The notes under the pieces are model-generated. The model had not been told where the DNA came from and made no database searches. It worked only from the letters and a program-made list of their open reading frames with translations. Shown piece by piece: positions 1,388 to 36,518 of a stretch of 38,476 nt of DNA; position 1 is the stretch's first letter; each line of letters begins with the position of its first letter. Source of the DNA: a virus (lineage: Duplodnaviria; Caudoviricetes); the IMG/VR virus record IMGVR_UViG_3300020043_002188, positions 1 through 38,476 of that record; one strand, given 5' to 3'. The position numbers and the translations under genes were made by a program.

Positions 1388-1590
1388 TAGGTGGTCTTTG
1401 CGCGGATGGCCTGATCTACACGTTTTGCAAGACCACGGTCAGCGCCAAGAAGTGCGATTCCCGCCCTGTACGCACACGCTTCACGCTCGGCAGCAATCTC
1501 ATGCTGCATGTACTCCAGCGTCACCGTACCGTACTGTGTAGGCTGGTTCTCTGGATCGATAAATAGCTGCAACACGCCACGATCAATCAT
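1387..1590 (-). CDS. Hypothetical protein, 67 aa
   Basis: Stop/start overlaps on both sides; contains an AAEREACA motif that I recall from small phage proteins. Confidence 0.7.
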   Translation of the reverse strand: MIDRGVLQLFIDPENQPTQYGTVTLEYMQHEIAAEREACAYRAGIALLGADRGLAKRVDQAIRAKTT

Positions 1591-2153
1591 CAGTCGTTCT
1601 CCAGTCTTGAGGTTACGTCAATCACCTCACCCTCGATCACCCGGGCTTGGGCCTGCGCCAGCGCCTCAGTGATGGAGATGGTGCCGCCGAGTTCAACTTG
1701 TTTGATCTCGCCGTAGCGTTTCTTGTTGTGTGCGCTCATGAGCCACTTGCGCGTGTCGATGCGCAGCTTGTCCCTGTTCACCGTGTCGTTCGAGTTGGCG
1801 TCGATCGCCTCGACCCCATCCGCAATTTCCAGAATCTCCCCGGCAAGAAACTCAGTGCGCATCTCCTGCGCTTCCTTGAACCGTTCATGGCGGGTGGCAT
1901 CCCGCTTGACCCAGCGCAGGAAGTCCTCATACGAGATGGCCCTGTGGTCATCCTCAATCAGCGATTGCAGGGACCGGCCACGGTAGATGTCTTCCACGAC
2001 TCTCTCGAAGATTTGCTCATATTCGACATGCAGCAACGCCCTTGCCTCCTTCGAGGTTCTGAGGGGTTCTGGGTCAGGCACGGACAGCCAGTTGGGCAGT
2101 TGATTCTCACTGGCGACAGCCGTGCCTACAAACGAGGTGTTCTCTTGTTTCAT
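1590..2153 (-). CDS. terS: Terminase small subunit (Sf6 gp1-like)
   Basis: N-terminal HTH-like segment (GRSLQSLI...FLRWV) and motif KLRIDTRKWLMSAHNKKRYGE typical of Sf6-type TerS; upstream of terL. Confidence 0.88.
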   Translation of the reverse strand: MKQENTSFVGTAVASENQLPNWLSVPDPEPLRTSKEARALLHVEYEQIFERVVEDIYRGRSLQSLIEDDHRAISYEDFLRWVKRDATRHERFKEAQEMRTEFLAGEILEIADGVEAIDANSNDTVNRDKLRIDTRKWLMSAHNKKRYGEIKQVELGGTISITEALAQAQARVIEGEVIDVTSRLEND

Positions 2154-2174: not shown

Positions 2175-2239
2175 GATTTTCACGGTGTCTATGGAACCCA
2201 CTGGGTTTCTGATTTTTGAAAAAATTTTCACGGTTTCTG
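2175..2239. repeat. Direct repeat ATTTTCACGGTnTCT (2 copies) upstream of terS
   Basis: Copies start at 2175 and 2225 and flank an AACCC-ACT-GGGTT palindrome. Confidence 0.55.
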
Positions 2240-2783
2240 TGATACCGCCCGGCCAACAGCCCACCTCGCTCCGGCCCTCACCCGCCCCCATCGAACCGCT
2301 GGCACGATTTATGCTTTGCGCCGCGCCGCCGCGCCGCGGACCGATCGCCCAGCGCCGCCGCATCACCGCGCCGCCCAGGATATCGCAGCCCAGCGGGTCC
2401 AGATTATCCGCGGATCCTGGCGCTAATCGATCACCCAGGATAATCGGATCCCCTGGGTTTACGGGTCCAGGGACTGGATCACCCAGCGGGTTAAAGGAAC
2501 CCAGGGGATCTAGGGAAATCCTGGCGACTGGATCACCCAGCGGGTTAAAACGGGGGTTTTGGGGGCGATTGTGACAAGTCGCCCTTTCGCGCAGGCAAGG
2601 CGAAAGAATATAACTTTTTCCACTGGGTCATTTAATCTGAAAATCCCGAAACCTTACCCCAGCGATAAAAGGAACAATTGTCACCACCCCCAAAAAGAAC
2701 CCCTGAAGCATCACCCAGCGGGTTAGGGTTTATCCTGATGCAAATATTTTGTCGTACCTGTTGACAATCTAACCCGCTGGGTT
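2195..2783. promoter_or_regulatory. Array of pseudo-palindromic ACCC-N3-GGGT(T) sites, putative operators
   Basis: Sites at 2195-2207, 2388-2398 (GCCC variant), 2481-2492, 2535-2546, 2713-2724 and 2771-2783. Includes a perfect 24-bp direct repeat at 2472-2495 and 2526-2549. Confidence 0.65.
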
Positions 2784-2788
2784 ATAAT
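2761..2788 (+). promoter_or_regulatory. Consensus sigma70 early promoter
   Basis: TTGACA (2761-2766), 16-bp spacer, TATAAT (2783-2788); AT-rich upstream; about 65 bp before the first early gene. Confidence 0.85.
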
Positions 2789-2852
2789 TACATCACCGGA
2801 ACAAATCCGGCACACTGTAACCCGTAACCTGTAACCCCGAAAGGACCTGATC

Positions 2853-3041
2853 ATGAACAAATCCGAAACCCGCGAAGTCGCCAAGATCGCCCAATACCAC
2901 GCCGCAGGCCTGGGCGCTGATTTTGTCGCCCGCGCTCTGTCTTCCCTGATCCGCGCCGCCCGTACAAATAAGAGCGCCGCCGCGCTGCAGGATATCGCCG
3001 CTGATTTTGGCGTCACCGATCACCCTGAATTCATTTGCTGA
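2853..3041 (+). CDS. Early hypothetical protein, 62 aa (first gene after the promoter)
   Basis: GAAAGGA RBS within the leader repeat; no family recognised. Confidence 0.8.
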   Translation: MNKSETREVAKIAQYHAAGLGADFVARALSSLIRAARTNKSAAALQDIAADFGVTDHPEFIC

Positions 3042-3050
3042 TCTAACCCA

Positions 3051-3067
3051 GGGGGCGCGAAGCCCCC
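3051..3067 (+). other. Intergenic GC hairpin without a U-tract
   Basis: GGGGGC-GCGAA-GCCCCC between early genes 1 and 2. Confidence 0.5.
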
Positions 3068-3101
3068 GCCCTGTAACCCGTAACCCTGAAAGAACCTGAT
3101 C

Positions 3102-3242
3102 ATGAATAAGCACCAATTGACGTACATCGATATGTACCCCGCCCCTGTCGATCGTGAACCGTCCGCCCTGGCGATCTGGGCAGGCGCTGCCCTGGCGCTG
3201 ATCGCCCTGTACCTGATCACCCTGTTTTTGTTCACCCTGTAA
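3102..3242 (+). CDS. Small membrane protein, 46 aa (not in ORF track)
   Basis: MNKHQLTYIDMYPAPVDREPSALAIWAGAALALIALYLITLFLFTL; starts at the ATG of one 38-bp repeat and stops inside the next; C-terminal hydrophobic helix. Confidence 0.8.
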   Translation: MNKHQLTYIDMYPAPVDREPSALAIWAGAALALIALYLITLFLFTL

Positions 3243-3267
3243 CCCGTAACCCTGAAAGAACCTGATC

Positions 3268-3576
3268 ATGAAAACTGAAAACCCCGTTATCCTGTCCGCC
3301 CTTGTCGATCGCCTTGCTGCGATCAAAGCCCAATTGGCGGATCTGTCCGCGGAAGAGAAAACCCTGAAGGGTGAATTGATCGCTGCGGATCTGCCCACGA
3401 TCGAAGGAACCGCGCACCGTGTCGCTGTTTCGTTCTGCCCTGGACGTGAAACGATCGATTGGCAAGCTGTCGCCGCTAAATTTAACCCGTCCCGCCAATT
3501 GATAACCGCGCACACTGCCCAGGGCGCGCCGTTTCATACTGTCCGCGTGTCCGCCAGGAAAGGGGTGAAATCATGA
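3268..3576 (+). CDS. Early protein with N-terminal coiled coil, 102 aa
   Basis: Starts at the repeat ATG; heptad segment LVDRLAAIKAQLADLSAEEKTLKGEL. Confidence 0.85.
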   Translation: MKTENPVILSALVDRLAAIKAQLADLSAEEKTLKGELIAADLPTIEGTAHRVAVSFCPGRETIDWQAVAAKFNPSRQLITAHTAQGAPFHTVRVSARKGVKS

Positions 3577-3806
3577 TCGACGCTAAATTTATGCGGGATC
3601 ACTTTACCCTGGTGACGATCACCGATAACCCCGCGCCTGCTGGGGTCCGCCTGGATCCTGAAGACCTGCGGGAAATCCTGGACGCCGTTAAATCTGGCGC
3701 TGCCCGCCTGCGGGGTCCGCGCTGCGAGTTTTCCGATAAACGCGCCGCCGCGTCACTGACTTTCGCCGCCGCCCTGATCACTGAAGCCCTTGAAAGGACC
3801 GAATAA
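3573..3806 (+). CDS. Early hypothetical protein, 77 aa
   Basis: ATGA overlap with the previous gene; GGGGTG RBS. Confidence 0.8.
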   Translation: MIDAKFMRDHFTLVTITDNPAPAGVRLDPEDLREILDAVKSGAARLRGPRCEFSDKRAAASLTFAAALITEALERTE

Positions 3807-4489
3807 TGCCCGCCTATCATTTTGTCGCCGTGTCTGCTAATCGTAAAACCGGAAAAATCCCCGTCACTTATTCTGAGCGGGACACCTGCCCGCCGTCCTG
3901 CCCGCATTATCGGGCGGACTGTTACGCGGAAGATTATTACACCCGGATGACCTGGGACAAGGTTCCCGCCCGCGGGGGATCCCTGGCGGATCTGTGCGCA
4001 TCGATCGCCGCCCTGCCCGCTGGGTCCCTGTGGCGTCACAATGTAGCGGGCGATCTGCCCGGATCTGGGGAAGACCTGGACCCCGCCGCCCTGGGCGATA
4101 TCGTCCGCGCCAATATTGGGCGGAAGGGTTTCACGTACACCCACAAAAAAACCGCTGACGCCCTGTACTGGGCAGGGCAGGCGACAAGCTGGGGTTTCAC
4201 CGTGAACCTGTCCGCGGATGACGCGGGCGAAGCTGACGCCCTGGCGGACGTGTCTGATTGTCCGATCACCTGTATTGTCCCGATCGATACCCCGCCCAAA
4301 ACCTATACACCGGACGGGCGCGTGATCATTGTCTGCCCTGCCCAGGTCCGGGACGATATCACCTGTCAATCCTGCGGACTGTGTGCGATCGCTGATCGCG
4401 CCGTGATCATTGGGTTTCGCGCACACGGAACCCGCGCCGCGGTTACTGACGCGAAAGCCCGCCGCGTGATCCCGATCGTGAAAGGATGA
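3806..4489 (+). CDS. Cys-rich radical-SAM-like phage protein (Gp88/DUF7227-like)
   Basis: Motifs NRKTG, TCPPSCPHYRADCYA (Cx3Cx6C), RHNVAGD, FTYTH, VNLSAD, CPAQ...TCQSCGLC and IGFRAHG; family assigned from recall. Confidence 0.7.
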   Translation: MPAYHFVAVSANRKTGKIPVTYSERDTCPPSCPHYRADCYAEDYYTRMTWDKVPARGGSLADLCASIAALPAGSLWRHNVAGDLPGSGEDLDPAALGDIVRANIGRKGFTYTHKKTADALYWAGQATSWGFTVNLSADDAGEADALADVSDCPITCIVPIDTPPKTYTPDGRVIIVCPAQVRDDITCQSCGLCAIADRAVIIGFRAHGTRAAVTDAKARRVIPIVKG

Positions 4490-4493
4490 AATC

Positions 4494-4838
4494 ATGCCCA
4501 AAAAATTGATCTTTAACATGATCCGGGCTAATGACGTCCGCGAAGCTGTCCAGTATTACCCGATCGTTTTTCTGCGGGGGTCCAGGTCCTGGCGGTTAGC
4601 CTTGCACCGTGAACCCGTCCTGGCGGGAAAGGGTGATTGGATTGTTTCGGACCCTGTGGGCGGTCACCGGGTTTGCCGGGTCACCGCGTCATTTAAAGGG
4701 GTCCCCGTATCGTCCAGGGACCTGCCCGTAAATCATGCCCGCGCCGCTGCCCTTATCGATCTGGATCTGACTGTTGACCGTATCGGCCTGGATCGTTTCG
4801 CCGCCGTCCTGGACGCCGCCCAAAACCCGAAACCCTGA
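4494..4838 (+). CDS. Early hypothetical protein, 114 aa
   Basis: Flanked by the 21-bp direct repeats, which carry an AAGGA RBS. Confidence 0.8.
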   Translation: MPKKLIFNMIRANDVREAVQYYPIVFLRGSRSWRLALHREPVLAGKGDWIVSDPVGGHRVCRVTASFKGVPVSSRDLPVNHARAAALIDLDLTVDRIGLDRFAAVLDAAQNPKP

Positions 4839-4850
4839 AAGGATGAAATC

Positions 4851-5054
4851 ATGCCCCTGGATCTAATGAAGCTGCCCGCCCCTGAAGCTGAAGCCCTGGC
4901 TTATGCTGAAGGGTTCACAAATACCGCGCACCTGTTCGCCAGGATCGCGGATCTACAAAAAGCCCTGGGCGAAGCCGTGAACGAAATCGAACAATTGAAA
5001 ACGGATCTTTACGCCGCCCAGTATGAGCGGGCATATCCCCGGGGGGATGAATGA
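4851..5054 (+). CDS. Early hypothetical coiled-coil protein, 67 aa
   Basis: Starts at the repeat ATG; segment IADLQKALGEAVNEIEQLKTDL. Confidence 0.8.
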   Translation: MPLDLMKLPAPEAEALAYAEGFTNTAHLFARIADLQKALGEAVNEIEQLKTDLYAAQYERAYPRGDE

Positions 5055-5137
5055 TCACTTTTTCGATTGTCGTTTCACTCATTTTCGCCGCCGTCCGCGC
5101 CTTGCTGCTGCTGATCGCGTCACTTATCAAGCCGTAA
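5051..5137 (+). CDS. Hydrophobic 28-aa peptide (not in ORF track)
   Basis: MITFSIVVSLIFAAVRALLLLIASLIKP; ATGA overlap with the previous stop; ends just before the terminator. Confidence 0.55.
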   Translation: MITFSIVVSLIFAAVRALLLLIASLIKP

Positions 5138-5148
5138 CCCGAACCCGT

Positions 5149-5176
5149 CCCCCAGGTGATCCCTGGGGGCTTTTTT
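5149..5176 (+). terminator. Rho-independent terminator of the early transcript
   Basis: CCCCCAGG-TGATC-CCTGGGGG-C-TTTTTT. Confidence 0.85.
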
Positions 5177-5196
5177 GACCCTGAAAGAATCCGATC

Positions 5197-5493
5197 ATGA
5201 ACGATACACCCGCCCCCGCCGCCCTGCCCAGCTTCGCCCAGGATCTGGGGGCGCTGATCACCCGCCGCGGACTGGATGAACCCCGCGCCGCGGGTCTGCT
5301 GGGGGTTCCTGTCTTCACCCTGCGGAAGTGGATCGCCGGGACCCGCGCACCGTCCGCCGCCGCCGTCCGCCTGCTGGACGTCCTGGGAACCCTGGACGCG
5401 ATCGCCCCCGCGCTGCTGGACGCGCTGACGCCCGCCGCCGCGCCCGCCGCCCCCAAGCGGCCCCGGGGACGACCAAGTGTCAAAATAGACTAA
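5197..5493 (+). CDS. XRE/Cro-like HTH regulator with C-terminal AT-hook
   Basis: RRGLDEPRAAGLLGVPVFTLRKWIAGTRAPS fits an XRE HTH; the tail contains KRPRGRP. Confidence 0.8.
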   Translation: MNDTPAPAALPSFAQDLGALITRRGLDEPRAAGLLGVPVFTLRKWIAGTRAPSAAAVRLLDVLGTLDAIAPALLDALTPAAAPAAPKRPRGRPSVKID

Positions 5494-5605
5494 GGCTCCC
5501 AACTAACCATCGGGCCTTTGGTTTTAAGGCATCGAACTAACCGTCAAGCCCTTGGTTTTAAGGCTCCCAACCAGCCGTCAAGACCACTTTTTAAGGAATC
5601 GAACC
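5491..5605 (+). repeat. Imperfect tandem repeat, about 3.4 copies of 34 bp
   Basis: Units start at 5491, 5525, 5559 and 5592 (TAAGGC[TCCC/ATCG]AACTAACCGTCAAGCCCTTGGTTT); the last partial unit supplies the RBS of the 5606 gene. Confidence 0.85.
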
Positions 5606-5957: not shown

Positions 5958-8456
5958 TCATTCGTCCATGTCCGGGGTGTACCCCTTGACCAGCTTACGA
6001 TCGTACCCCTTGGCCGTGGCGTGGCGGTAGATGTAGTCAGCGTGGCGCTGCTTGGCCTTGATGACCGTCTGCCGGTAATCCTTGAACATCTCAGGCAGCG
6101 TGGGGTTGATGGCCCATGTGACCTTTTTCTTGTGCAGTTCACTCTCGATCTGCACCGCCCAGCCAGCCTGCTCGATGACCAGCATGGCGTCCATAATCGC
6201 CTGATCCTTCTGCCAGTCGGTCTTGCCCTCCAGTGGCCTGCGGGCCGACCGTTTGAGGCTGCGCAGGTCAATGGTGTGCACCTCGCCGCTGATCTGCACA
6301 ATGTAGTCAATTACCCACTGATCAAACGTGTCGGTGATGACCCCGCCCACCTCGCCCAAGGCGTAGCGGTAGGCCGGGATGATGTACCCGCGCACCAGAC
6401 TGACCACCCTGTGGACAACATCGACTGACACCACGGGGTTGAAGGGCGACTCGATGACGTGGAACATGAGAATCAGACGGCCAGCTAAACCTTCCAACTT
6501 GCCGAAAGCCGTCATGTACTCTGTGCCGCTGTCCAGCACCCGCTCGTCCTGCTTAGCCGACTCATACCACTGCTGGAATTCCCTGAAGGCTGTGTACGCT
6601 TCTGTGGATAACTGGTACGTCTGCACGGGCAGCGCGTAGGTCAGGCGCAGGGTGTTCTCCCATGCCCCGGCGCTGCTCATGTAGTCGGGGATGGGCTGGC
6701 CCAGCTTGGTCTTGCTTCCGCGCAAGATAGCGGGGATGAACCGTTGCAACAGGCCGTCAGCCGACAGCGCGGCCAAATTGGCCTTGAACACTTGGGGCTG
6801 GATGTTGCCGTAGATTGACACAGCAAGGTTCTCGGCATAAATCGACCCAGCGCCCACTCGGTCCATCTCGTAGTGTTCTGACTCGTAACTGACAACCCAC
6901 GCTGACCGGTCCTCGCCGCTGCTCTTGTCTGTCAGCTTGCGCACCCAACTGTTCATCTCATCGAGGTAGCACAGCAGGCCACGGGGCCGGTCTGCCGCTT
7001 GGCGCACCAGCTTCTGACTGGTGATGTCGCTGACTGTGATTTTGAGCGGCACCGGCTGCGTTGACAAGTCGGGCACAAGCGGTGCCTGATCGCCGCCCAG
7101 CATGGCCTCGGTCGACGATGACCACTCTAGGAATGCCTTCTTGGCGCTGGCGTGTTGGGCCTCTTTGCCCTCCCAGTCGAGCAGTTCCTTGCCGTAGCGG
7201 GGCCGGTCCTCGGCCTCGATGTTCTTCAATGGCGACAGCATGGGCCGCGATCCGGGTGACTTCTTGTCCGCTGGGTCGCCCAAAGTCATGAGCCACAGCA
7301 CCGGGGGCACCTTGAACCCCGGCATGAGTTCCAGCCGTGTGCGGGCGTCAATCACCCCGCAGACAGCGGCCAACCCAGCGAACAAAGGGACCAAAGGGTC
7401 ACAGCCCACGCTTTCTGAAATCTCAGTGGATCGGGTCTTGAGGATGCTGGGCCACAGGGACAGGTCCATCTCGGGTGGCTTGGGCCGCAGGCCGTCCATC
7501 ACGCTCAATGGCTCCATCACGGGGATGTCGATCTTGCTGAACAACTCGGACGCATCGGGCATGGGTCGCTGCCACCCGTGCTGCTTGGCAATATGGAACA
7601 GTGTCCCCAACTTGACAGCGGTGGCCTTGTCAGTCTTGAAGCTGATCCACTGCGTCAGAATCTCACGCTCACCGGGGTACTTTGTCTGTGCGGTAGCACT
7701 CCATTCGTTCCACAGTGCCAGCGCCTGCTCAAGCTGATCGGTCTGAGTGCCCGCCCAGTGCAGTGCCATGCCGATGTTCACCCACTCGTCGCGGGTGCAG
7801 TCGGCAGGTACAGCATCAAGGGCTTGCCTGATCTCTTCCCACGAGGCGTCAACCGTGCCGTCTGTGGCGATGGTGCGTTCTTTGTCCTGCGCCAGCATCC
7901 CACTCCACAGGTCCAGCAGGGCTTGGGGGATGACGGGCATCCGGGTCCAGTGGCCGTGGCCCGCCCAGTGGTAGGGCTGGCGTGTCTCGGGGTGGATTGA
8001 CGGGGGCAGCACGTCTTGCACCGTGAGGCCGCTGACCGTGGCGCAGCGCAACTCGTAGGCCGTGATGCCACTGTGCATGATCTTCTTTGAGGGCAGCGCC
8101 GCGCCGAAGGGCATTGCGTACAGCAGCTTGCCGTGCCCGGGCTTGCCCGAGTTGATCACCACGGCATCAGGCGCATCGTATAGGGCTTGCAGGTCGATGC
8201 CGTGCTCGGCCAGCAGACTGGTGGTCACGGTCCAGTTGTCGATGTCAAGGGCCATCGTGCCGCTGTACGCATGGGCCAAGCCGATGCCGTAGCCTTGCGG
8301 CAGATCGCCTTGGGCCTTGAGGGCGTTCTGTTTGAGGTTCCAACCCGGGGTGCGCGGCCCCTTGGTGTTGGCTGGGATGGGGACAAGTGACCAGCCGTGT
8401 CTGATGTAGGCATCAACAGACGCTGGATGTGATTGCACAGTCTGTGGTGCTGTCAT
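5958..8456 (-). CDS. Bifunctional primase-polymerase with PriCT-2 and DUF3987 (YfjI-like) helicase-like domain, 832 aa
   Basis: Prim-pol N-terminus (YIRHGWSLVPI...KGP...ALDID...VLPPSIHP); PriCT-2 (RDEWVNIGMALH...WNEWS...KY); DUF3987 motifs (PPVLWLMTLGDPADKKSP, LDEM, DGLLQRF). Likely start is MTAPQ at 8456. Confidence 0.88.
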   Translation of the reverse strand: MTAPQTVQSHPASVDAYIRHGWSLVPIPANTKGPRTPGWNLKQNALKAQGDLPQGYGIGLAHAYSGTMALDIDNWTVTTSLLAEHGIDLQALYDAPDAVVINSGKPGHGKLLYAMPFGAALPSKKIMHSGITAYELRCATVSGLTVQDVLPPSIHPETRQPYHWAGHGHWTRMPVIPQALLDLWSGMLAQDKERTIATDGTVDASWEEIRQALDAVPADCTRDEWVNIGMALHWAGTQTDQLEQALALWNEWSATAQTKYPGEREILTQWISFKTDKATAVKLGTLFHIAKQHGWQRPMPDASELFSKIDIPVMEPLSVMDGLRPKPPEMDLSLWPSILKTRSTEISESVGCDPLVPLFAGLAAVCGVIDARTRLELMPGFKVPPVLWLMTLGDPADKKSPGSRPMLSPLKNIEAEDRPRYGKELLDWEGKEAQHASAKKAFLEWSSSTEAMLGGDQAPLVPDLSTQPVPLKITVSDITSQKLVRQAADRPRGLLCYLDEMNSWVRKLTDKSSGEDRSAWVVSYESEHYEMDRVGAGSIYAENLAVSIYGNIQPQVFKANLAALSADGLLQRFIPAILRGSKTKLGQPIPDYMSSAGAWENTLRLTYALPVQTYQLSTEAYTAFREFQQWYESAKQDERVLDSGTEYMTAFGKLEGLAGRLILMFHVIESPFNPVVSVDVVHRVVSLVRGYIIPAYRYALGEVGGVITDTFDQWVIDYIVQISGEVHTIDLRSLKRSARRPLEGKTDWQKDQAIMDAMLVIEQAGWAVQIESELHKKKVTWAINPTLPEMFKDYRQTVIKAKQRHADYIYRHATAKGYDRKLVKGYTPDMDE

Positions 8457-8626: not shown

Positions 8627-8839
8627 ATGACATCACCCAAATCCAAATCAGCGTTCATGACTGTCCGAGTGACAGACAAGACGCGCACCAAGTTTCATGA
8701 GAAAGCACGGAAGATCGGAACACCGAGCGAAGTGCACCGTGAAATCGTCGAGGCGTTCGTAGAAGACCGCCTCACAATTCAACCCCCCGTAAACCGTAAC
8801 CCTCTGGAGAAACTTTATGTCACTCGAACTCAAGATTGA
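8627..8839 (+). CDS. Ribbon-helix-helix (Arc/CopG-like) regulator, 70 aa
   Basis: AFMTVRVTDKTRTKFHEKARKIGTPSEVHREIVEAFV has a strand-helix-G-helix pattern; AAGGA RBS. Confidence 0.7.
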   Translation: MTSPKSKSAFMTVRVTDKTRTKFHEKARKIGTPSEVHREIVEAFVEDRLTIQPPVNRNPLEKLYVTRTQD

Positions 8840-11706: not shown

Positions 11707-13560
11707 ATGAGTAACGACTATGTATTCGACATCGAAACCTATCCCAACGTGTTCACGCTGGCAGTGGAACACGCAGAAGCACCTCTGCACTGGATGTTCG
11801 AGATCAGTGACCTACGCAACGACAGTCGTCAGATCGTTGAGTTCCTCCAGTTCCTCAAGGAAACCGACTCACGCATGGTCGGCTTTAACAACTTGGGGTT
11901 CGATTACCCTGTGATCCACACCCTGATCCGCATGGGTCAAAGTGATGCCAACACGCTGTATCAAAAGGCGATGGCAATCATCAACGCACAGGATGAAGAT
12001 GGTGGCCGCTGGATGCACTCGGTCAAGCCCTCGGACCAGTTCGTCGCACAGATCGACCTGTTCAAGATTCACCACTTCGACAACCGCGCCCGCGCCACCA
12101 GCCTCAAGGTGCTGGAGTTCAACATGCGCAGCGACAGCATTGAAGACCTGCCGTTCCCGGTGGGCACCGTGCTGACCCGTGACCAGATCGAAGTGCTCAA
12201 GCAGTACAACAAGCACGATGTGGCGCAGACCAAGGCGTTCTACTACCACACGCTTGACATGATCCACTTCCGTGAAGAGCTGACGCGCAAATACGCCCGG
12301 GACTTTATGAACCACAACGACACCAAGATCGGCAAAGACTACTTCACCATGAAGTTGGAAGAAGCCGGTGTCGCTTGCTACGACTTCGGCCCGAATGGCC
12401 GCACACCCCGGCAGACCAAGCGCCCAGTGATCCACCTCAAAGACGCCATCCTGCCGTGGATCAACTTCGAGCATCCTGAATTTAACCGGGTAATGAACTG
12501 GCTCAAGGCTCAGACCATCACCGAAACCAAAGGGGTCTTCACGGACCTCACAGCAACCGTCGATGGCTTCACTTTTGTTTTTGGATTAGGAGGCATTCAT
12601 GGCTCAATGGAATCGGTTGTGGTCGAATCCGATGACGAGAACGTCATCATTGATTTGGACGTTACCAGCTACTACCCAAACCTTGCAATCACGAACGGCT
12701 TCCATCCGGCCCACTTGGGTAAAGAGTTTGTCAGCATCTACAAGCACCTGTTCGAGCAGCGCAAGCAGTACCCCAAGAAGTCCGCAGAAAGTGCGATGCT
12801 GAAGCTGGCGCTGAACGGCGTCTACGGTGACAGCAACAACCAGTTCTCGATCTTCTACGACCCGCTGTTCACCATGTCGATCACGCTCAACGGCCAACTG
12901 CTGCTGTGCTTGCTGGCCGAGGGGTTGATGCACATCCCCGGGCTGCGCCTGATCCAAGTGAACACGGACGGCTTGACAGTGCGTGTGCCCCGGGCCAACA
13001 AGATGCTGGTCGATCTGGCCCGCGCTGCATGGCAGACGCGCACCGGGTTGAACCTTGAAGAAGCCGTCTACAAGGCCATGATGATCCGCGATGTCAACTC
13101 GTACATCGGCGTGTTTGAAGACGGCAGCACCAAGCGCAAGGGTGCCTATGAGTACAAGGTCGGCTGGCACCAAAACGCTGGTGGACTGGTGGTGCCCAAG
13201 GTGGCCGAAAAGGTGCTGGTTGACGGTGCACCGATCCGCGAGACAGTCGAGCAGTGGCCTGAGATTATGGACTTCATGCTTCGCACCAAAGTGCCCCGCA
13301 GCAGCCACCTCGCTATTGAGTGGGACGGTCAGCAGCCCCAGAAGTTGCAGAACATAACCCGTTATATAATAACCAAAAACGGTGGGCGATTGTTCAAATG
13401 GATGCCCCCTCTCAAGGGCAAGACCGAGTGGCGCAAGATCGGTGTCGAAAGCGGCTGGGGTGTTCAACCATGCAACAACATTCGTGACGCAGATGGTGTC
13501 GAGATCGACTACGACTATTACATCCGCGAAGTGGAAAAACTCGTACTGGGGCTTGTTTGA
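11707..13560 (+). CDS. DNA polymerase, family B, with 3'-5' exonuclease domain, 617 aa
   Basis: ExoI FDIETY, ExoII GFNNLGFD, ExoIII YNKHDV; motif A DLDVTSYYPN, motif B KLALNGVYG, motif C QVNTDG. Confidence 0.92.
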   Translation: MSNDYVFDIETYPNVFTLAVEHAEAPLHWMFEISDLRNDSRQIVEFLQFLKETDSRMVGFNNLGFDYPVIHTLIRMGQSDANTLYQKAMAIINAQDEDGGRWMHSVKPSDQFVAQIDLFKIHHFDNRARATSLKVLEFNMRSDSIEDLPFPVGTVLTRDQIEVLKQYNKHDVAQTKAFYYHTLDMIHFREELTRKYARDFMNHNDTKIGKDYFTMKLEEAGVACYDFGPNGRTPRQTKRPVIHLKDAILPWINFEHPEFNRVMNWLKAQTITETKGVFTDLTATVDGFTFVFGLGGIHGSMESVVVESDDENVIIDLDVTSYYPNLAITNGFHPAHLGKEFVSIYKHLFEQRKQYPKKSAESAMLKLALNGVYGDSNNQFSIFYDPLFTMSITLNGQLLLCLLAEGLMHIPGLRLIQVNTDGLTVRVPRANKMLVDLARAAWQTRTGLNLEEAVYKAMMIRDVNSYIGVFEDGSTKRKGAYEYKVGWHQNAGGLVVPKVAEKVLVDGAPIRETVEQWPEIMDFMLRTKVPRSSHLAIEWDGQQPQKLQNITRYIITKNGGRLFKWMPPLKGKTEWRKIGVESGWGVQPCNNIRDADGVEIDYDYYIREVEKLVLGLV

Positions 13561-13561
13561 T

Positions 13562-14074
13562 ATGTGGAAAGACGTACTTGATTTTGAAGGCTATGAGGTG
13601 TCGTGTGACGGCAGTGTTCGGTCATGGTTACCGGAACGAAACAACGCACCATCTCCGGCACAACCACGGCTATTGAAGTTCATTGTTACGCCCGGTGGAT
13701 ACCGGCAAGTGAACCTGTACGCAAACGGAAAGCGACGAGTGGTGCGGATTTCGGTGCTTGTTGCCGAAACTTTTCATGGTCCGCGCCCTGCGAATGCCGT
13801 GTTGCGACACTTGAACGGGAATCGTCAAGACGACAGAGCCGTGAATCTTAAGTGGGGCACCACGCAAGAAAACAATGACGACATGCGACGACACGGAACA
13901 TGGGCGCATGGTGAACCCATCCACACATCCAAATTGACTGAGCAGGACGTGCAGCACATTCTGCAAAGTGATGAACGAGGTGTTGATCTTGCGAAACGAT
14001 ACGGCGTTACGCCGGGAAACATTTGCCACATTCGCAAAGGGCGAAGCTGGAATCACATTGAGAGGACACAATGA
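13562..14074 (+). CDS. NUMOD4-HNH homing endonuclease, 170 aa
   Basis: MWKDVLDFEGYEVSCDGSVRS (NUMOD4), RHLNGNRQDDRAVNLKWGT (HNH) and a C-terminal HTH. Confidence 0.9.
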   Translation: MWKDVLDFEGYEVSCDGSVRSWLPERNNAPSPAQPRLLKFIVTPGGYRQVNLYANGKRRVVRISVLVAETFHGPRPANAVLRHLNGNRQDDRAVNLKWGTTQENNDDMRRHGTWAHGEPIHTSKLTEQDVQHILQSDERGVDLAKRYGVTPGNICHIRKGRSWNHIERTQ

Positions 14075-16702: not shown

Positions 16703-16821
16703 CTCAATGCCAACACCGCTGGATACTGACCCCATCACCACACCGCACTCAGTATCACTACCAATGCGCCCGATGTGCCCAAGTGGCATGGGCAACATTG
16801 AAAGAAAAGGCCGCGTTGTGA
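16699..16821 (+). CDS. Small zinc-ribbon protein, 40 aa
   Basis: MTQCQHRW...YQCARC; GGAGG RBS; ATGA overlap. Confidence 0.65.
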   Translation: MTQCQHRWILTPSPHRTQYHYQCARCAQVAWATLKEKAAL

Positions 16822-17051
16822 AAATCAAAATCTACACCAAGTCGCAGTGTCCCAATTGCGTCACGGCCAAGGCGCTGCTGAAATCCAAGGGGTTGGTGTA
16901 CGACGAGTTTGATGCGGAGAACATTCACATCCGCGCAGACATCGAACACAACCATCCACACATCCGACAGATGCCTGCGATCTGGGTCAATGGTCAATAT
17001 GTCGGTGGATTGGCTGGTCTTCAGGCTGCGCTCAAGCAGATGGGTCTATGA
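16818..17051 (+). CDS. Glutaredoxin
   Basis: KIYTKSQCPNCVTAKALL...MPAIWVNGQYVGG; GTG start at 16818. Confidence 0.9.
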   Translation: MKIKIYTKSQCPNCVTAKALLKSKGLVYDEFDAENIHIRADIEHNHPHIRQMPAIWVNGQYVGGLAGLQAALKQMGL

Positions 17052-29501: not shown

Positions 29502-30299
29502 TTAGCGGTTGCGAAGTGCCCGTGCCTTGTCAAGTTGTCGTTGACGCTCGGCAGCAATCCAGTCCGATGTGCTCATGGTCTTGACAGACCGAGGATCGGT
29601 GGTGTCAGTGACACCGGGGTTTGTTGCTCGTGCAGTCACCGGACGAATCGGGTCAGGTGCGGACGAAGTTTTCTTTTGGAAAGGTTCGGCAGTTATCTTA
29701 GCCTCAATCTTTCCGATTTCTCGCGCTTGCAACAGTGGCGACAAGCGAGATATGCGATCAGCTTCTTTGGGGTTGCTGCCCAGCCAGTAGGCCAGATCAG
29801 GTCCAATGTCGGAGCTTTTGATTGTCTCGGCCATCACATCAGTGACTCGGAGATTCGGGTTGTAGGCGACTTGTTCAAAGTCGTCATACTTGTTCCGAAC
29901 TTCTTCTTCACGTTCTGCGTAGCTGTCCTCAATCGCTGCTTTTTGCTTCTGGAGTTCACGCTGGTGGAGCATCTCCTCGGCCCGCTTGACCGCCAGTGCT
30001 TCCGCATAGGCTTCAGGGGACTCAAATTGATCCACAGGCGGGAGTTCCTTGGGCACCGACTGCCGCACTTGCATCTCTGCTTGTTTGGCTTGCTGCTCAC
30101 GTTCCCATTTGCGCTGTTCTCTTGCGAGGCGCTTGCCGATCATCGAATCGAGTTCAGCTTGAGAGAATCGCTTCTCCTCGGGTGTCTCGTTGCTTTGATC
30201 AGCGACTTCCGGCAGATTTTGTGCATTGTCCGAGGTGGCCGTCACTTCGGGTGCTGGCGCGGAGTCTACTTCCGCTAGGTTTTGGACTTCATCAGTCAT
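29502..30299 (-). CDS. Scaffolding protein
   Basis: Acidic, coiled-coil protein with GPDLAYWLGSNP..A.RI...REIGKIE motif; immediately upstream of the coat gene. Confidence 0.85.
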   Translation of the reverse strand: MTDEVQNLAEVDSAPAPEVTATSDNAQNLPEVADQSNETPEEKRFSQAELDSMIGKRLAREQRKWEREQQAKQAEMQVRQSVPKELPPVDQFESPEAYAEALAVKRAEEMLHQRELQKQKAAIEDSYAEREEEVRNKYDDFEQVAYNPNLRVTDVMAETIKSSDIGPDLAYWLGSNPKEADRISRLSPLLQAREIGKIEAKITAEPFQKKTSSAPDPIRPVTARATNPGVTDTTDPRSVKTMSTSDWIAAERQRQLDKARALRNR

Positions 30300-30347
30300 T
30301 TGTAACTCTTGTGAGTTCCCGGTCTACTGGGCCGGTACAGTTCTCAG

Positions 30348-30374
30348 ATTATGCGCTAAGAAGGCGCTTGTCAA
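30348..30374 (-). promoter_or_regulatory. Putative promoter for scaffold and coat genes
   Basis: Minus strand TTGACA-15bp-CATAAT, followed by a CCGG...CCGG leader hairpin. Confidence 0.55.
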
Positions 30375-30376
30375 GA

Positions 30377-31822
30377 TCAGACCGTATACCAGCCTTCAAA
30401 AATGAGTTGACTGGACGCAGACACCTCACCAATAGTTAAATTTGCGGTGCCAGCGGTTGTGGAAAATTTTTGCAAATCAACGTGGCTGAAACTTGCGCCA
30501 ACAAACCCGGTTAACGCATTAGCTGCCACAATTGACATTCCAGAGGCAAGACCCACAGTCATAGCAGATTGAGAATTTGCAATGTTGCTGGACGCAAACG
30601 GCAGGCCACCAATTCGTGCAGTATTCCCTGTCGTCAGTGTGCCCAACGACGACATTTGAATATTGCCTTTGTAGAACACTTTGTTGCCAACACGGCTGTA
30701 AGTACCGTATTGAATGGTGTATGTCTGCCCTTCAGACGGGCTGAGAGAGTCATCAAACAGAACGGGCGTCCAGCTTTGCTCAATATCCACGGCTACGTTT
30801 GAACCAGCGACGATGGTTGGTGTACCAGACTCATATTGGTTGTTTGTGGCATTGATGAAACCACCCGGGGCATCGGTTTCAAAGTCATCACCGGATCGTA
30901 AACGGCAAGAATCTATGTTCACAATTCCAGACGTGGCGTAGATTTTTGAGCCGGTCGCGCTGAAATAACAACCCGTGGCCGAAACAGTGGCCTTGAAAGC
31001 GTCTGCGCCGTTGCCGTAAACACCAATGCAATTAATTGTGCAGACTTCAAAGTCTGTACCGTTAACTGCAATCGGCCCGTTGCCACGATCCACGTACAAG
31101 CCGTAGGCAAGTTTTTCAATAAACCCGCCAGAAATTGAAACACCGTTTACGTTGGCGACAGGTTGAATCAGGATACCGGAAACACCTGTTTTATCCTTAC
31201 CCCAAATGCGTGGGGATGTGATGGCAATTCCGTTGCAACCTTGACCAAGTGAAATAGCATTTTCTGAAAAATTCTCAACAACCACATTGTCGAGATGCAA
31301 CCCCCAGCAATAAGGACCAATGTTTACAGCACTGTTGCCCGCAATGGTGTTGATGACCTGACACGCGATGTAACTGTACGGCATACGCTCCATGTACAGC
31401 CCCATGCTGACCACATCATCACAATCAAGTGTCAAGCCTTGTCCGACAAATGCGTGTTCACGTTGAGCGCCGCTAATGTCGTTGTAATTGCCAAGAAGAA
31501 ACAACAGCAAGCAGTCAAGAACTACTGTGCCACCGCCGCCCGTGTTGGTTCGAGTTGCGCCTGTAAAAGTGGCAGCAGATTTGATTGTTGCGTTATCACC
31601 ATCAAGTCGATAGTTGGCAGGCAGCAAAAGAGGGCTGCTGATTTTGTAAATACCTGTCGGAAACCACACCAAAGAGTAGCCAACACCTGACACAAGACTG
31701 GCATCAATGGCAGCTTGAATTGCAGCAGTGTCATCCGTCGATCCATCGCCTGTTGCACCGTAGTCAAGGACGTTGATCACAGTGTTGTTGATTAACGAAA
31801 AAGATGCTTTTGTAAGCGCCAT
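30377..31822 (-). CDS. Tailspike with pectate-lyase-3-like beta-helix (receptor binding), 481 aa
   Basis: INVLDYGATGDGSTDDTAAIQAAID...FPTGIYKIS followed by beta-helix repeats; start MALTK with GGAG RBS. Confidence 0.88.
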   Translation of the reverse strand: MALTKASFSLINNTVINVLDYGATGDGSTDDTAAIQAAIDASLVSGVGYSLVWFPTGIYKISSPLLLPANYRLDGDNATIKSAATFTGATRTNTGGGGTVVLDCLLLFLLGNYNDISGAQREHAFVGQGLTLDCDDVVSMGLYMERMPYSYIACQVINTIAGNSAVNIGPYCWGLHLDNVVVENFSENAISLGQGCNGIAITSPRIWGKDKTGVSGILIQPVANVNGVSISGGFIEKLAYGLYVDRGNGPIAVNGTDFEVCTINCIGVYGNGADAFKATVSATGCYFSATGSKIYATSGIVNIDSCRLRSGDDFETDAPGGFINATNNQYESGTPTIVAGSNVAVDIEQSWTPVLFDDSLSPSEGQTYTIQYGTYSRVGNKVFYKGNIQMSSLGTLTTGNTARIGGLPFASSNIANSQSAMTVGLASGMSIVAANALTGFVGASFSHVDLQKFSTTAGTANLTIGEVSASSQLIFEGWYTV

Positions 31823-31834
31823 GAGTGACTCCAA

Positions 31835-32434
31835 TTACACGCAATAAGTTGCGGTGAAAATGATGTTGTTTTGACCAGCCGATGCACCAGAGACAAGATT
31901 TGTCTCATTTAACGCAGCCGTTGCACCATTTGCAAGTGCGCGATATTGAAGCACAATTGTTGTTGCACCAGATTCAACATACCCAGTTGACGGGAAATTA
32001 ACGTTCCAGTTTGCGGCGTACCCGATATTGACAACACCGTGCGCGGCAGATGTAAACGGCAATCCGCTAATCCGCAGCGTTCCAGACGCACCAGTTGCAT
32101 TCACATTGCTTGTTGCAATGTTTGCCACAATCGTCACCACACGACCAACTCGCGTATATGTTGCCGATGTAATCGACATCGTGTATGGGGTTGTTGGCGG
32201 CGTAGTGTTTGTGTATTGCGGCGTCCAAGTCCCTTCCTCGTACCAGTTCAGCAACTCGCTGGTCATGCCGGGCGCGTTGGAGTTGGCGGCGAAGTTGACA
32301 CCCTTGCCTGCGGCAGGCGAAAGAATTTGGTCGATGGTGGCTTTTTTAGTTGCACCGCCTTGAACAACGGGCACTACCTCAGTACCTGCCAATGCGGTTG
32401 CTGCGGAAAGCTGGGATATTTTTTGATCAGCCAT
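31835..32434 (-). CDS. Fibre/spike-associated protein, 199 aa
   Basis: ADQKISQL...VVPVVQGG.TKK N-terminus; YEEGTWTP...YTRVGR...ISGLPF domain. Confidence 0.75.
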   Translation of the reverse strand: MADQKISQLSAATALAGTEVVPVVQGGATKKATIDQILSPAAGKGVNFAANSNAPGMTSELLNWYEEGTWTPQYTNTTPPTTPYTMSITSATYTRVGRVVTIVANIATSNVNATGASGTLRISGLPFTSAAHGVVNIGYAANWNVNFPSTGYVESGATTIVLQYRALANGATAALNETNLVSGASAGQNNIIFTATYCV

Positions 32435-33419: not shown

Positions 33420-33782
33420 TTATGCGAGGAATTTTAACTTGTACAGGGTGGACAGGTAAAGCCCGACGATTTCATCAATGATATTCTGGATTGCGGTGTC
33501 GGTTTTGTCGCAGACCTTGTACCGGTTGTCCTCGATCTCAGACAGCGATTGTTCCAGAAACTCGATGATGTTGCCGTTTTTTGTGGCACTCATTAGGCTG
33601 ATCGGCCCAATTAGACCATGACGGCCTTGGTACGCCTCGGCAAACTTGTCGGCCAACTCGATCACTTCGTCGTAGAACGAGTTCAGCGCCATGTGTTTGG
33701 AAAAGCTGCGGGTGTTCAGGTGCACCGAGTGGGCCACATCTCGGGCCAAGAACAAAATACCAACAAAATCAGCGGATTTCAT
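33420..33782 (-). CDS. Ferritin/Dps-like four-helix protein (DUF5856-like)
   Basis: AHSVHLNT.SFSKHMALNSFYD...DKFAEAYQG matches the Dps pattern. Confidence 0.75.
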   Translation of the reverse strand: MKSADFVGILFLARDVAHSVHLNTRSFSKHMALNSFYDEVIELADKFAEAYQGRHGLIGPISLMSATKNGNIIEFLEQSLSEIEDNRYKVCDKTDTAIQNIIDEIVGLYLSTLYKLKFLA

Positions 33783-35967
33783 TCATCTCTCCTTGGGGTG
33801 CCATCATCTCAGGCTGCATTTGTGGTTCTTCCATCTCGGGCATTTCGCGCTGTTGGTTCATGATCATGTTGTCGTTGCTCTCCAGCGCAGCAGCCACGAC
33901 ACCCATAGCGATGTCTTGAATCTGCTGCTCACTCATGCCAGCCTGCACGGCGCTGATACGCTGTGTCTCGGCCTGATATGCCTTGATGTCAGCCTCAAAC
34001 TGCTTGATCTCCAGATCACGGGCTTCCATGCTCTTGTTGACGTTTTGGAGCATGTTGAACATGTTCTCCATTTCAGCGGCCATCGCCTCCATCTGCTGGT
34101 TGGCAGCGGCCAAGGCTGGATCGTCTTCGTCGGCCAGCACTTTGGGGTCGATGGTCTTCTTGAACCGCTTGGCGAGGTCTTGGGCACCGGGCCAGTCCAT
34201 GTTCTTGACGAACAGGTCACCAGCAACTTGCCACAACTGTGGGTTGCCTTGCAGCAACTGGGCCATGCTCTCCAAGGCTTCCTGACGCTTGGTAGCGTAG
34301 CCGGGGCCGGTGATCACGCGCACATCGTACTTGCCGACAGCGGGGTTGTAGATTTTCTCGATCAGCACACCCTCTTGGTCCACGATCCGCTTGACGGGTT
34401 CCTCTTGCATCGGGTTCATTTTGACGGTCGATGGCTCACCATCTTCGCCAATGATGCGAGCAATGCGCTCGGTGTCGTAAATCTTGGGGATCAGGTCCAC
34501 GAGTTGACGGCCAATGTGACGAATCGCACGGGCCAAGTTGTCAACGTAGTGGTAGGTGCCGATGTCGCCTTCGCGCTGGCGGGCCAAGATGGCTTTGCCG
34601 GAACGCTCGTTGCTGGTCATGCCCAGCGATGCGTTGTACTGACCGGTGGCCGACTTGATGTCCTCGGCAGCGCCTGCCTTGGCTTGCAGGAGGCCGCTGG
34701 AGGCCATCGGAGGCTGTGCCCGCTGGGGTAGTGGCAACACAGCGCCTTGACCGTCTGTAACGTCAGGATTGACCTCCAGATAGGGCCAGTTGTTCGTGTT
34801 GGCAGTCTTCCACTGCTGCTCGTAGCCTTCAAACTGCCCGCCGTACCCGATGAACGGGGCTTTGGGGGCCAGCGCCAGCATCTCAGCTTCCTGCGATACC
34901 CAGTAGTTGTACATGCGCTGGGCATCCTTGGCGTTGCGCACCAAGCCCGACACGTACATCTGGCCGTCCACCTCGAACTCGTTGCCGACCACGCGCACCA
35001 CAGGAATGTAGGCACCAGCCCACTCGCGTTCTTCGAGGATGTCGTAACCGTTGATCTTGCACCACTTGACCTTTTTGCGGTCAGCTTCGCGGCTGCGGAT
35101 CGGCTTGCCAAACATCATGCGCAGGGTCTTGTCCTCGGGCGTACCGCTGAACGCAGTCTGGTTGCCGGGGTACAGATTGAGCGTTTGCTTCTCGTACTCG
35201 ATGTAGAAGTACTCGGCGATGCGGATGGTGTTCTCACCAATCCACTGGGCGATGGACTGATCGCCCACGCCAAGGCTCATGAGGGTGCTGATTGGTGCTG
35301 CATCGGGATACATACGCTCGTATTCAGCTTTGGGCAGGTCTTCCGTCACAAAGCACCACTTGGCGTCTGCGCCCGTGGGGTCTTGGATCAGGGGGTCCAT
35401 GTAGACGCTGAAGCTGTTGCGGATGCGCCCGATCTTGATGTCCTGATCGAACGTGTCTTCGTCGCAGTACTCGGTCAGCAGTCGGATGTAGCCTTCGCCG
35501 TAGGACACTTGGTTCTCGCAGGCGGTGTCGTAGGCCACGTCAGCATCGGAGATGTACTCGATGTGGCGAATCACGCCGTTGAACACCTCGGCCACGTCCA
35601 CGTCAGCCTCGTCGTCAGCCGGGATCACTTTGATGCCGGGACGGTTCATGCGCTGCTCGTTTGTCACTTGATGAACGTGCTGCGGCAGCTTGTTGATGGT
35701 CAGGCAGGGGCGGGCGTTGATGGTTTGACCCTGCACGGCACCACGAGTCTGGAGCACGTCAGCAGGCCACTGCCACTGGTTGTCTGGGGAGCCTGCGTAA
35801 AACCGCAGGTCATCGAGTTCGTCTTCCCGAGTTTGGGAAAACGCCGTCATGGCCGTGTTCATGCGTGAACGGGCAACGGTCAAAATTTCCTCGGAACCGC
35901 CTTTTGACGGGTACGGTCCGTTTTTTGCCACATTGGCTGCGGCTACGATTCCGGTGGTGTCTTTCAT
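33769..35967 (-). CDS. Portal protein (P22 gp1-like), 732 aa
   Basis: [36 protein letters not shown] and GKYDV...[10 protein letters not shown] motifs. Confidence 0.93.
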
Positions 35968-36518
35968 TGAAATCGATTCCCTTTGCTCATGTTTTCAACG
36001 GCAGGTATCACTTGCAGGTTCCAAGGAACGTGCAAACCTGACACCGATTTTCCCCGCAAAGGGACAATATGGTCAACATGATAGTCCAAGCCAGCGGAAC
36101 GGAGTGCCGCACAGTATGCGTAAACCGTGTCGAATTCTAGTCGATCTGCGGAAGTAAGCCAATTTGGCATCCGCAAGTCTTTGGCGGCGCGGCGGCGCGT
36201 TGCCGATTCAGCCACCTTGCTCAGATTGGAGCGTTTCCAGTTTTTGGTCGATTGTCGGACCTTTTCGGGGTTGCTTTCCGACCATTTTGTGCGAATAGCT
36301 GAAACCTTGTCTGGGTTTTTCTGCCGCCATTTGTTGACGTGCTTCAAGTGATCCGCTGAGTGATCAGCGTACCATTTTTTAAAAGCATTGTCGGCGCAGA
36401 CACAACAGCCGTAATTCGTAACCTGTCGTTCGGCAACATGTCCATGCTTGCAAGGCGTGTTTGTGAAATAGCGCGGCAAACCCTGCGCCATTGCTTCAGA
36501 CCGGCTGATTACTTTCAT
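35964..36518 (-). CDS. HNH homing endonuclease, 184 aa
   Basis: [11 protein letters not shown]...CCVC N-terminus and [32 protein letters not shown]. Confidence 0.9.

Follow-up and report, generated by a model that had tools for sequence, protein, structure and literature searches.

Type I restriction enzymes are reported to restrict Murciavirus only through the region of its genome that is injected first (PMC12455610), and in relatives of T5 restriction likewise occurs only at sites in the first segment (PMC10644984, 10.1101/866236). Relatives of T7 and T3 alternate between Ocr and an S-adenosylmethionine (SAM) hydrolase at gene 0.3 (PMC8594841). Here we describe a comparable segment in an uncultured P22-like lake phage of the Caudoviricetes, IMG/VR record IMGVR_UViG_3300020043_002188, whose full 38,476 nucleotides make up the window that we analyzed. 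The genome is a complete circular assembly (121-base terminal overlap, 120 identical), and positions 2320 to 5453 form a compartment, here called the leader, that is purged of the A-N(6-9)-T geometry of Type I targets and of their half-site words, as judged from change points, a tetranucleotide G-statistic and the ratio of A..T pairs. We propose, at a probability of about 0.72, that the leader is the first-entering DNA, kept free of Type I targets until an inhibitor that it encodes acts. We are much surer of the purge than of the order of entry. The segment works like the leader of T7 or T5, yet the phage is a member of neither family.

The first-pass annotation, made from the letters alone, had described a sharply bounded compartment in which CCWGG and GATC are raised and GAG/CTC is nearly absent, in coding and noncoding DNA alike, and our analysis bears this description out. 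Of the 40 CCWGG copies in the genome, 38 lie within 2375-5391. Between 2280 and 5500 we counted 61 GATC (17.6 expected at the backbone rate) and 8 GAG/CTC (74 expected); CAAC (2/46, observed/expected), ATGG (1/29), ACCA (5/38), CCAC (8/41), CCTC (0/20) and GGCC (3/21) are also nearly lost from this interval. The biases exceed what the leader's own codons allow: when these were shuffled synonymously with the proteins held fixed, CCWGG stood at 28 against 12.9±2.9, GATC at 48 against 30±3, and GAG/CTC at 7 against 38±4. The 720 noncoding bases of the leader contain 10 CCWGG, 12 GATC and no GAG. A likelihood-ratio walk trained on 2600-5200 placed the change points at 2320 and 5453, and the tetranucleotide G-statistic is 1829 for the compartment versus 359 for the next non-overlapping 3-kb window; the early region of T7, which is that phage's own top outlier, gives 315.

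What underlies these word biases is the loss of A-N(6-9)-T, an A followed by a T with 6-9 bases between them, and the three motif biases are its surface. The "own motif code" of the first-pass annotation is real and lineage-specific, but the signal is driven by this lost geometry, which that annotation had missed. For comparison, we pooled the best 80 of 261 loci of terS (the terminase small subunit gene), the best 80 of 269 loci of DUF7227, four GenBank genomes and this phage, 165 records with some contigs present twice; 105 of them carry both terS and the helix-turn-helix (HTH) gene in this arrangement, and dereplication left 75 representative leaders, which make up about a dozen lineages. 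Pooled over the 75 leaders, the observed/expected ratio (O/E) of A..T is 1.15 at distance 6 (d6), 0.68 at d7, 0.69 at d8, 0.74 at d9, 0.89 at d10 and 1.04 at d11, and the T..A control is flat at 0.94-0.97. In the leader of this phage the counts at d7-10 are 86, 74, 100 and 108 versus 128 each, with codon-shuffle z values of -3.8, -2.7, -0.6 and -3.1; its A..T(7-10) ratio is 0.66, compared with 0.94±0.03 (minimum 0.87) in backbone windows of the same length. The leader lies below its own backbone in 75 of 75 relatives (medians 0.72 vs 0.94).

This geometry is that of Type I targets. Table 1 of PMC3874165 lists 38 Type I enzymes; in all 33 for which an interval is given, 6-9 bases separate the methylated adenines, which corresponds to an A before a T at d7-10, as depleted here. 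The gap is deepest in the contexts CCA (0.52), GCA (0.57) and CGA (0.58) and nearly absent in AAA (0.98), and across 16 such contexts its depth follows half-site use, as tallied by hand from the same table (Spearman -0.63, p 0.009; backbone 0.10). Sites of Type I geometry, defined by the generic spacing and half-site context and not by the specificities of the actual hosts, are thus depleted in the leader and kept elsewhere. Type IIB and similar bipartite N6-methyladenine enzymes have the same geometry and may also be a source of the gap. Six-base palindromes are avoided throughout the genomes, less so in leaders (0.72) than in backbones (0.42). The distant phages MW202483, MW202898, RpY1, DU_RP_II and P26218 show neither compartment nor A..T gap; of additional note, MW202483 carries a 5-methylcytosine methyltransferase gene at 30041-31018, in the equivalent slot.

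Could the same pattern arise from adaptation of the early mRNA at the level of RNA or translation, such as codon optimization or avoidance of toxin RNase sites, or from a local mutational or repair bias? Codon adaptation has been reported in plasmid leading regions (PMC13478746), the CCTG excess of the leader is stronger on the sense strand, and the strand correlation of log O/E in leaders (0.41-0.81) is no higher than in backbone genes (0.70-0.74). Against this, the most depleted words are gone from both strands (GAG 5/44, CTC 1/45), the operator-like copies described below are recoded too, and a directional gap in A..T but not T..A at 7-10 is unexpected from codon use, hairpins or short-patch repair; we therefore hold such an origin to be very improbable. 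A drive by very-short-patch repair was rejected in its own right: GAG, CCAT and CAAC are lost whatever their context, and repair yields no gapped signal. Readings based on CRISPR (clustered regularly interspaced short palindromic repeats) protospacer-adjacent motifs or on phosphorothioation were dropped on the same grounds.

The comparison with relatives shows that the code changes and the slot does not. All 75 representatives have a leader in the same place with homologous genes, and the compartment is present in every one of them, written in other words. Among the leaders listed, five are rich in CCWGG and GATC, ten are poor in CAG, AGA and GAC, and others are rich in GGCC; five of the codes each occupy one side of a branch. 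The DUF7227 gene, at 72-78% identity between lineages, has 34 CAG/CTG in this phage, while one clade has 5-8 and another 39-51. The terS gene is 95-98% identical across several leader types, and homologous, syntenic leader genes span terS identities of 38-98% among the leaders listed. Since the genes have been recoded in place on a shared backbone, a single donor does not fit. The first-pass annotation had itself named simple recent transfer from a genome with this composition throughout as the case that would undo its proposal, and sharp edges, cassette repeats and modular exchange could be taken as signs of it; the homologous syntenic genes, the lineage-specific codes, the common gapped signature and the span of terS identities all speak against it, and because the codes are lineage-specific in one slot, every lineage would have required a donor of its own. 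We give this alternative almost no weight. In the relative designated L019, whose terS is 96% identical to that of this phage, the leader is rich in GAG, AAT and ATTC and poor in ACT, CAG and CAC, and it carries three different acidic open reading frames (ORFs).

The closest GenBank record is a lake metagenomic phage, DSL-LC05 (OR003940; TerL 91% and portal 95% identity), of the proposed family "Luchaoviridae" (PMC10611076). It has the same gene order and compartment (G 1313; A..T 0.65 vs 0.95), and its leader is written in another code, with no CCWGG and with CAG and CTGC lost. The text examined of PMC10611076 mentions neither the termini nor the composition of DSL-LC05.

The excess of CCWGG and GATC, which is specific to a few lineages, appears to be largely a residue left by the loss of other words. 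The 38 CCWGG compare with about 35 expected from the leader's own tetranucleotides; a codon model with penalties only reaches -585, close to the -562 of a free model (null -1086), although penalty-only and reward models are hard to tell apart; and the non-palindromes AAAA and CCTG are raised as much as the palindromes. For these reasons most of the excess can be a by-product, and yet the purge explains it only in part. One may thus ask whether palindromes methylated by the host, CCWGG and GATC here and GGCC elsewhere, were positively loaded as a self-tag or as bait for defense enzymes. A residual context preference for CCWGG and GATC would suit this idea, as would the GGCC density of about 20 per kb versus about 5 in one clade among the leaders listed, and the weaker avoidance of six-base palindromes in leaders noted above. 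The context preference persists in two lineages and is reversed in others, and many of the lineages listed show no CCWGG/GATC excess or avoid both; moreover, the A/T pairs that lie within CCWGG are purged too (0.42-0.48). Taking these together with the composition-based expectation and the codon models, we judge a self-tag unlikely, though it is the strongest of the rivals. The related idea that methylated CCWGG shields Type I half-sites was rejected, given the purge of A/T inside CCWGG; for GATC it finds no support in the corresponding values (0.84 vs 0.63 in this phage, 0.72 vs 0.66 pooled). The two CCWGG copies outside the leader stand at 37124 and 37155, 31 bases apart, near the end of a 149-aa ORF (36760-37209).

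Our pooled profiles place both edges of the purge at defined features. On the left, terS (1590..2153, minus strand; Sf6-like, PF20901, E 3e-19) lies directly beside the compartment and has ordinary composition: the pooled ratio is about 0.95 through terL and terS (about 0.9-1.0 left of the terS start), falls within 150 bases upstream of the terS start and then holds near 0.7. In this interval nearly all of the close terS loci listed share an element (2196..2290) composed of one ACCC-N3-GGGT copy, an A/T tract and a C tract, which is a candidate packaging-start or genome-end site. Among 80 terS loci, five stop 108-140 bases upstream of terS; this is weak evidence, because assembly breaks at junctions of conserved and variable DNA would look alike. 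No pile-up of starts or ends was found in four sequencing runs, for which assembled contigs were used and depth was unsuited to testing for a terminal repeat. That the purge begins so sharply on the left and leaves terS and terL untouched makes permuted, terminally redundant ends less likely.

On the right, the pooled ratio rises abruptly where the HTH gene ends, from 0.63 to 0.92, and beyond this step changes slowly, going from about 0.88 to 0.96 in the course of about 4 kb; the last 400 bases on the HTH side give 0.57-0.65 and the following 400 bases 0.89-1.00. In this phage the faint tail (0.83-0.93) runs over the primase/helicase gene (5958..8456, minus strand) and fades to about 0.96 by about 4 kb past the boundary. 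Leaders range from 2.3 to 4.9 kb among relatives, and the right step moves with the end of the HTH gene instead of keeping a fixed distance from terS: beyond 3.2 kb the ratio is 0.61 in 20 long leaders, and after the HTH gene it is 0.90 in 14 short ones. The tandem repeat that had been annotated as the end of the compartment (5491-5605; units of about 34 bp, four seed copies) does stand right at this edge; with the change point at 5453, it lies just outside, and its sequence is not conserved in relatives, which have other iterated elements there. Seeds of four unrelated repeat types occur at the right edge, at least one in 64 of 75 leaders (11 are unlabeled), so that what is conserved is position and not sequence. 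Repeat type agrees best with HTH similarity (3-nearest-neighbor agreement 0.85-0.92), and less with the left-hand gene (0.74-0.78), primase (0.66-0.70) and terS (0.60-0.65). This covariation hints that the HTH protein may bind the repeat, and it is confounded by linkage. The repeat is a candidate entry-pause site, HTH operator or origin. The annotated likeness to the injection-stop signal of T5 thus extends to a repeat-rich element and not to DnaA boxes: no DnaA-box array was found at the boundary, where one match lies at 5614, and the genome has 40 matches versus 47.8 by chance.

These edges also bear on whether staged entry is needed at all. The leader might be purged since it is transcribed before protection is in place, with the whole genome entering at once, coated or shielded by injected proteins, and exposed in this region only, or its edge might be a module-exchange junction. 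Leaders are swapped as modules on a shared backbone (terS 95-98% identical), which could alone sharpen the right edge, and the phage encodes P22-like ejection proteins (gp7-like). Exposure by transcription is, however, hard to reconcile with Type I enzymes acting on any naked site whether or not it is transcribed (PMC3874165), with an edge that falls at the repeat instead of at a terminator (5149 or 5936), and with a backbone that is unpurged in every lineage and has its fading tail on the right side only. We consider this group of explanations improbable, somewhat more so than the self-tag.

On our reading the leader would encode the inhibitor, and the most plausible one in this lineage is DUF7227 (3806..4489, plus strand; 227 aa, PF23872, E 2e-71), a candidate Type I inhibitor by position, fold and exclusivity. 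Its structure was modeled with a mean predicted local distance difference test score (pLDDT) of 96 as a radical-SAM-like partial barrel, and the top four structural rows are radical SAM enzymes: QueE (Z 6.6, root-mean-square deviation 5.1, 161 aligned), QueE again (6.2), viperin (6.2) and PFL-AE (5.6). The canonical radical SAM motif is CX3CX2C. DUF7227 instead has CX3CX6C (C28, C32, C39), nearly or fully invariant in 111 sequences, together with four further invariant C-terminal cysteines. Foldseek gave nothing at E<=0.001, and a sequence search of the PDB gave no match. Given that Type I enzymes need SAM (PMC3874165), the predicted fold raises the possibility that DUF7227 consumes SAM. The family is large and uncharacterized (1846 representatives at 50% identity); in Atlas clusters it occurs together with GP88 (16-22% of members), and a homologue is gene 1, the first gene, of the T7-like cyanophage P-SSP7. 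An A..T dip surrounds DUF7227 at 10 of 11 further loci outside the terS-HTH context (0.71-0.87), one of which still belongs to this phage family, and is absent at the eleventh (0.94). In the Pakpunavirus C2-10_Ab1 (HE983845, record positions 80500-85000) the A..T(7-10) ratio dips to 0.87-0.93 around DUF7227, and 0.87 is the lowest of 24 windows within the 38 of 93 kb examined; this dip lies 8-11 kb from the record end and not at the end.

Where DUF7227 is missing, another kind of protein may take its place. A strongly acidic ORF, defined as at least 90 aa with a net charge of -15 or below and outside the 67-aa family described below, occurs in 0 of 51 DUF7227-positive and 17 of 24 DUF7227-negative leaders (0 of 12 versus 17 of 24 in terS-selected loci only), and none is present in the leader of this phage. 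One acidic family has 114 residues and a net charge of -25, compared with 117 and -28 for Ocr. By their composition, the acidic early proteins of relatives are candidate DNA mimics. The acidic ORFs have no sequence or profile similarity to Ocr or ArdA, one ORF has a weak match to the Lar zinc ribbon, and the 114-residue family has no PDB sequence match below E 0.08. The small, very acidic early proteins seen in relatives (L026, L013, L019 and L054) make up at least eight unrelated families, none of which matches a named one.

Based on our findings, we suggest a plausible course of events. The leader lacks the geometry and half-site words of Type I targets; the backbone keeps both and avoids Type II palindromes throughout. 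The same genes have been recoded against a different word set in each lineage, and these sets may mirror the pools of HsdS half-sites in different hosts. In lambda and T7, the DNA packaged last is ejected first. By analogy, with a fixed virion end near 2200-2320 and packaging leftward through terS, the leader would be packaged last and ejected first. Entry would then pause or slow at the HTH gene and repeat, the strong sigma-70 promoter would drive synthesis of the inhibitor, and the rest of the genome would enter safely. The inhibitor would be a SAM-consuming radical-SAM-like enzyme here and an Ocr-like acidic protein where DUF7227 is absent, and the CCWGG and GATC excess would be mostly a leftover of forbidden words in a host that does not cut CCWGG or GATC. 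Our results give indirect support to the view, already put forward in the first-pass annotation, that the segment has the behavior of DNA that enters first and faces another restriction regime. Only tentatively do we extend this to a widespread freshwater P22-like family with fixed ends, an entry halt at a repeat bound by the HTH protein, host-specific leaders that are swapped on a common backbone and encode Ocr-like mimics or a SAM-destroying DUF7227, and A-N(6-9)-T loss as its marker.

Several observations weigh against this account. P22 and Sf6 package by the headful mechanism. The P22-like virion genes and Sf6-like TerS of this phage suggest the same for it, and under headful packaging such site avoidance in a fixed leader would be irrelevant (PMC12455610); a fixed leader on a P22-like chassis therefore implies fixed ends. 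The proposed genome end and injection order come from assembled contigs. As for the purge, d9 is not significant in this leader, as its codon-shuffle z shows; the T..A control, too, is slightly reduced in the leader relative to the backbone in 51 of 75 relatives; the gap is weaker in the noncoding head of the leader (A..T 0.82, T..A 0.91); and the 75 leaders are not independent cases, coming as they do from about a dozen lineages. The loss of A/T within CCWGG belongs here too, as does a pentanucleotide preference for CCWGG, 89/113 versus 65/118 in five related leaders and 19/25 versus 18/33 (p 0.11) in this one. The genes had been annotated at first as anti-defense-like, yet no leader protein matches any named anti-defense or anti-restriction family. 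The best structural Z of DUF7227, 6.6, is below the tool's threshold of 8. Finally, the host search returned 19 genome loci, all of them short pieces from metagenome bins of mixed taxa and none a prophage, and published text on the Lake Biwa methylome gave no usable lead.

Set beside the described systems, the locus shares with T7 and Murciavirus its variable early genes and, on our reading, the restriction of Type I sites' importance to the leading part and an inhibitor, which in those phages is known or presumed at the first gene, Ocr or SAM hydrolase (PMC12455610, PMC8594841). The Murciavirus target, AGAG-N6-GTG (PMC12455610), shows both the geometry and the half-sites that are depleted in this phage. 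Unlike those phages, this one has a P22-like chassis, with no RNA polymerase gene among the 61 ORFs scanned; its purge is generic and can be recognized when no enzyme is known, ends sharply on the right at an edge defined by sequence and is far deeper (A..T 0.66, versus 0.94 in T7 and 0.94-0.96 in P-SSP7, in 3-kb windows). In T5 and BF23, too, a repeat-rich noncoding element closes the first segment (10.1101/866236, PMC10644984). The leader here is 3 kb and the first-step-transfer DNA of T5 9.7 kb, however, and the repeat here is of four unrelated types that covary with the adjacent HTH gene; no leader ORF has a Pfam or PHROG match to A1 or A2. Like the SAM lyase/hydrolase of T3 and the Ocr of T7 at gene 0.3, DUF7227 and the acidic proteins are apparently two solutions alternating in one slot, yet no sequence similarity to the gene 0.3 proteins was found, and DUF7227 models as a Cys-rich barrel. 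In a search that covered main texts and few subscription journals, we found neither the leader of this family nor a generic A-N(6-9)-T signature described, no function assigned to DUF7227, and no paper on the ends of TerL-related Liberibacter phages; the supplements of PMC12455610 may bear on novelty.

The promoter, operator-like array, cassette-like small genes and HTH gene that had been placed in the interval were all found, and the early genes, variable among relatives, stand behind a host-type (sigma-70) promoter. This promoter (2761-2788) matches the consensus at 12/12 positions and, with four ACCC-N3-GGGT copies (2481, 2535, 2713, 2772), one of them in its spacer, occupies 2481..2788 on the plus strand. 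All five ACCC-N3-GGGT copies of the genome lie within 2196-2782. Inside the leader their core avoids CCAC/GTGG, and the outside copy at 2196 shows no such avoidance. Because ACCC-N3-GGGT is kept across lineages with differing HTH proteins, another protein may bind it, possibly TerS or the product of a 70-aa ORF (8627-8839) that looks ribbon-helix-helix-like by eye.

The leader genes all read on the plus strand. Cassette-junction repeats of 38 nt precede small genes (2820..3272; copies at 2820, 3069 and 3235, weaker ones at 4818 and 5164). The first early ORF (2853..3041, 62 aa) and a 46-aa ORF with a hydrophobic C-terminal half (3102..3242) belong to no family and cluster with ORFs in 25 and 55 of 75 leaders, respectively. 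A 102-aa ORF (3268..3576), modeled as a long helix with a beta ribbon (pLDDT 93), has uncharacterized viral matches, no PDB match at E<=0.001 and weak rows for an HU/IHF-like fold. The 77-aa (3573..3806) and 114-aa (4494..4838) ORFs on either side of DUF7227 have no family. They are followed by a 67-aa ORF that almost all leaders have and a hydrophobic one of 28 aa (together 4851..5137), and by a terminator-like hairpin (5149..5169) before the HTH gene (5197..5493), the last under the purge, whose Pfam match, HTH_31 at E 0.002, is below the curated cut-off.

The rest of the genome encodes P22-type portal, coat, head-closure and ejection proteins, as recognized by profile matches, and a primase, DNA polymerase and helicase besides the Sf6-like TerS; no methyltransferase gene was found among the 61 ORFs scanned. 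Many six-base palindromes are absent or nearly so from the backbone, which amounts to strong genome-wide Type II avoidance: outside 2280-5500, CGGCCG, AGCGCT, GGCGCC, GCGCGC, AAGCTT, CTGCAG and CCATGG each number 0 versus 27-37 expected. The tailspike region (30377-32434; GC content 47-50% vs 57%) is the second compositional outlier (G 359) and probably an exchanged receptor-binding module. An HNH/NUMOD4 endonuclease gene beside the DNA polymerase gene (13382-14074) and an endonuclease VII-like gene beside the portal gene (35964-36518) have no counterpart at the matching place in the DSL-LC05 annotation. Genes for DUF5856 (Dps-like in PHROGs), GroES and glutaredoxin lie at 33420-33782, 36515-36763 and 16707-17051.

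Type I site avoidance is described as uncommon in phages, according to genome-wide surveys cited in PMC12455610. In this family such avoidance has been strong enough to alter codon choice and even the sequence of operators, yet it is confined to 3 kb. The gapped-pair statistic can be computed without information on the host or its enzymes and could therefore reveal, in uncultured phages, which end leads and where the entry boundary lies; comparison of the lineage codes with host methylomes could help to assign hosts. If the wider, tentative reading above is correct, the A-N(6-9)-T gap would generally mark first-entering DNA, independently of annotation, and would also reflect the HsdS repertoires of hosts. 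DUF7227 is a concrete candidate inhibitor from a large uncharacterized family and would, on the same tentative reading, represent a new class of anti-restriction protein. For the family itself, our results suggest that a P22-like virion can have fixed ends and staged entry.

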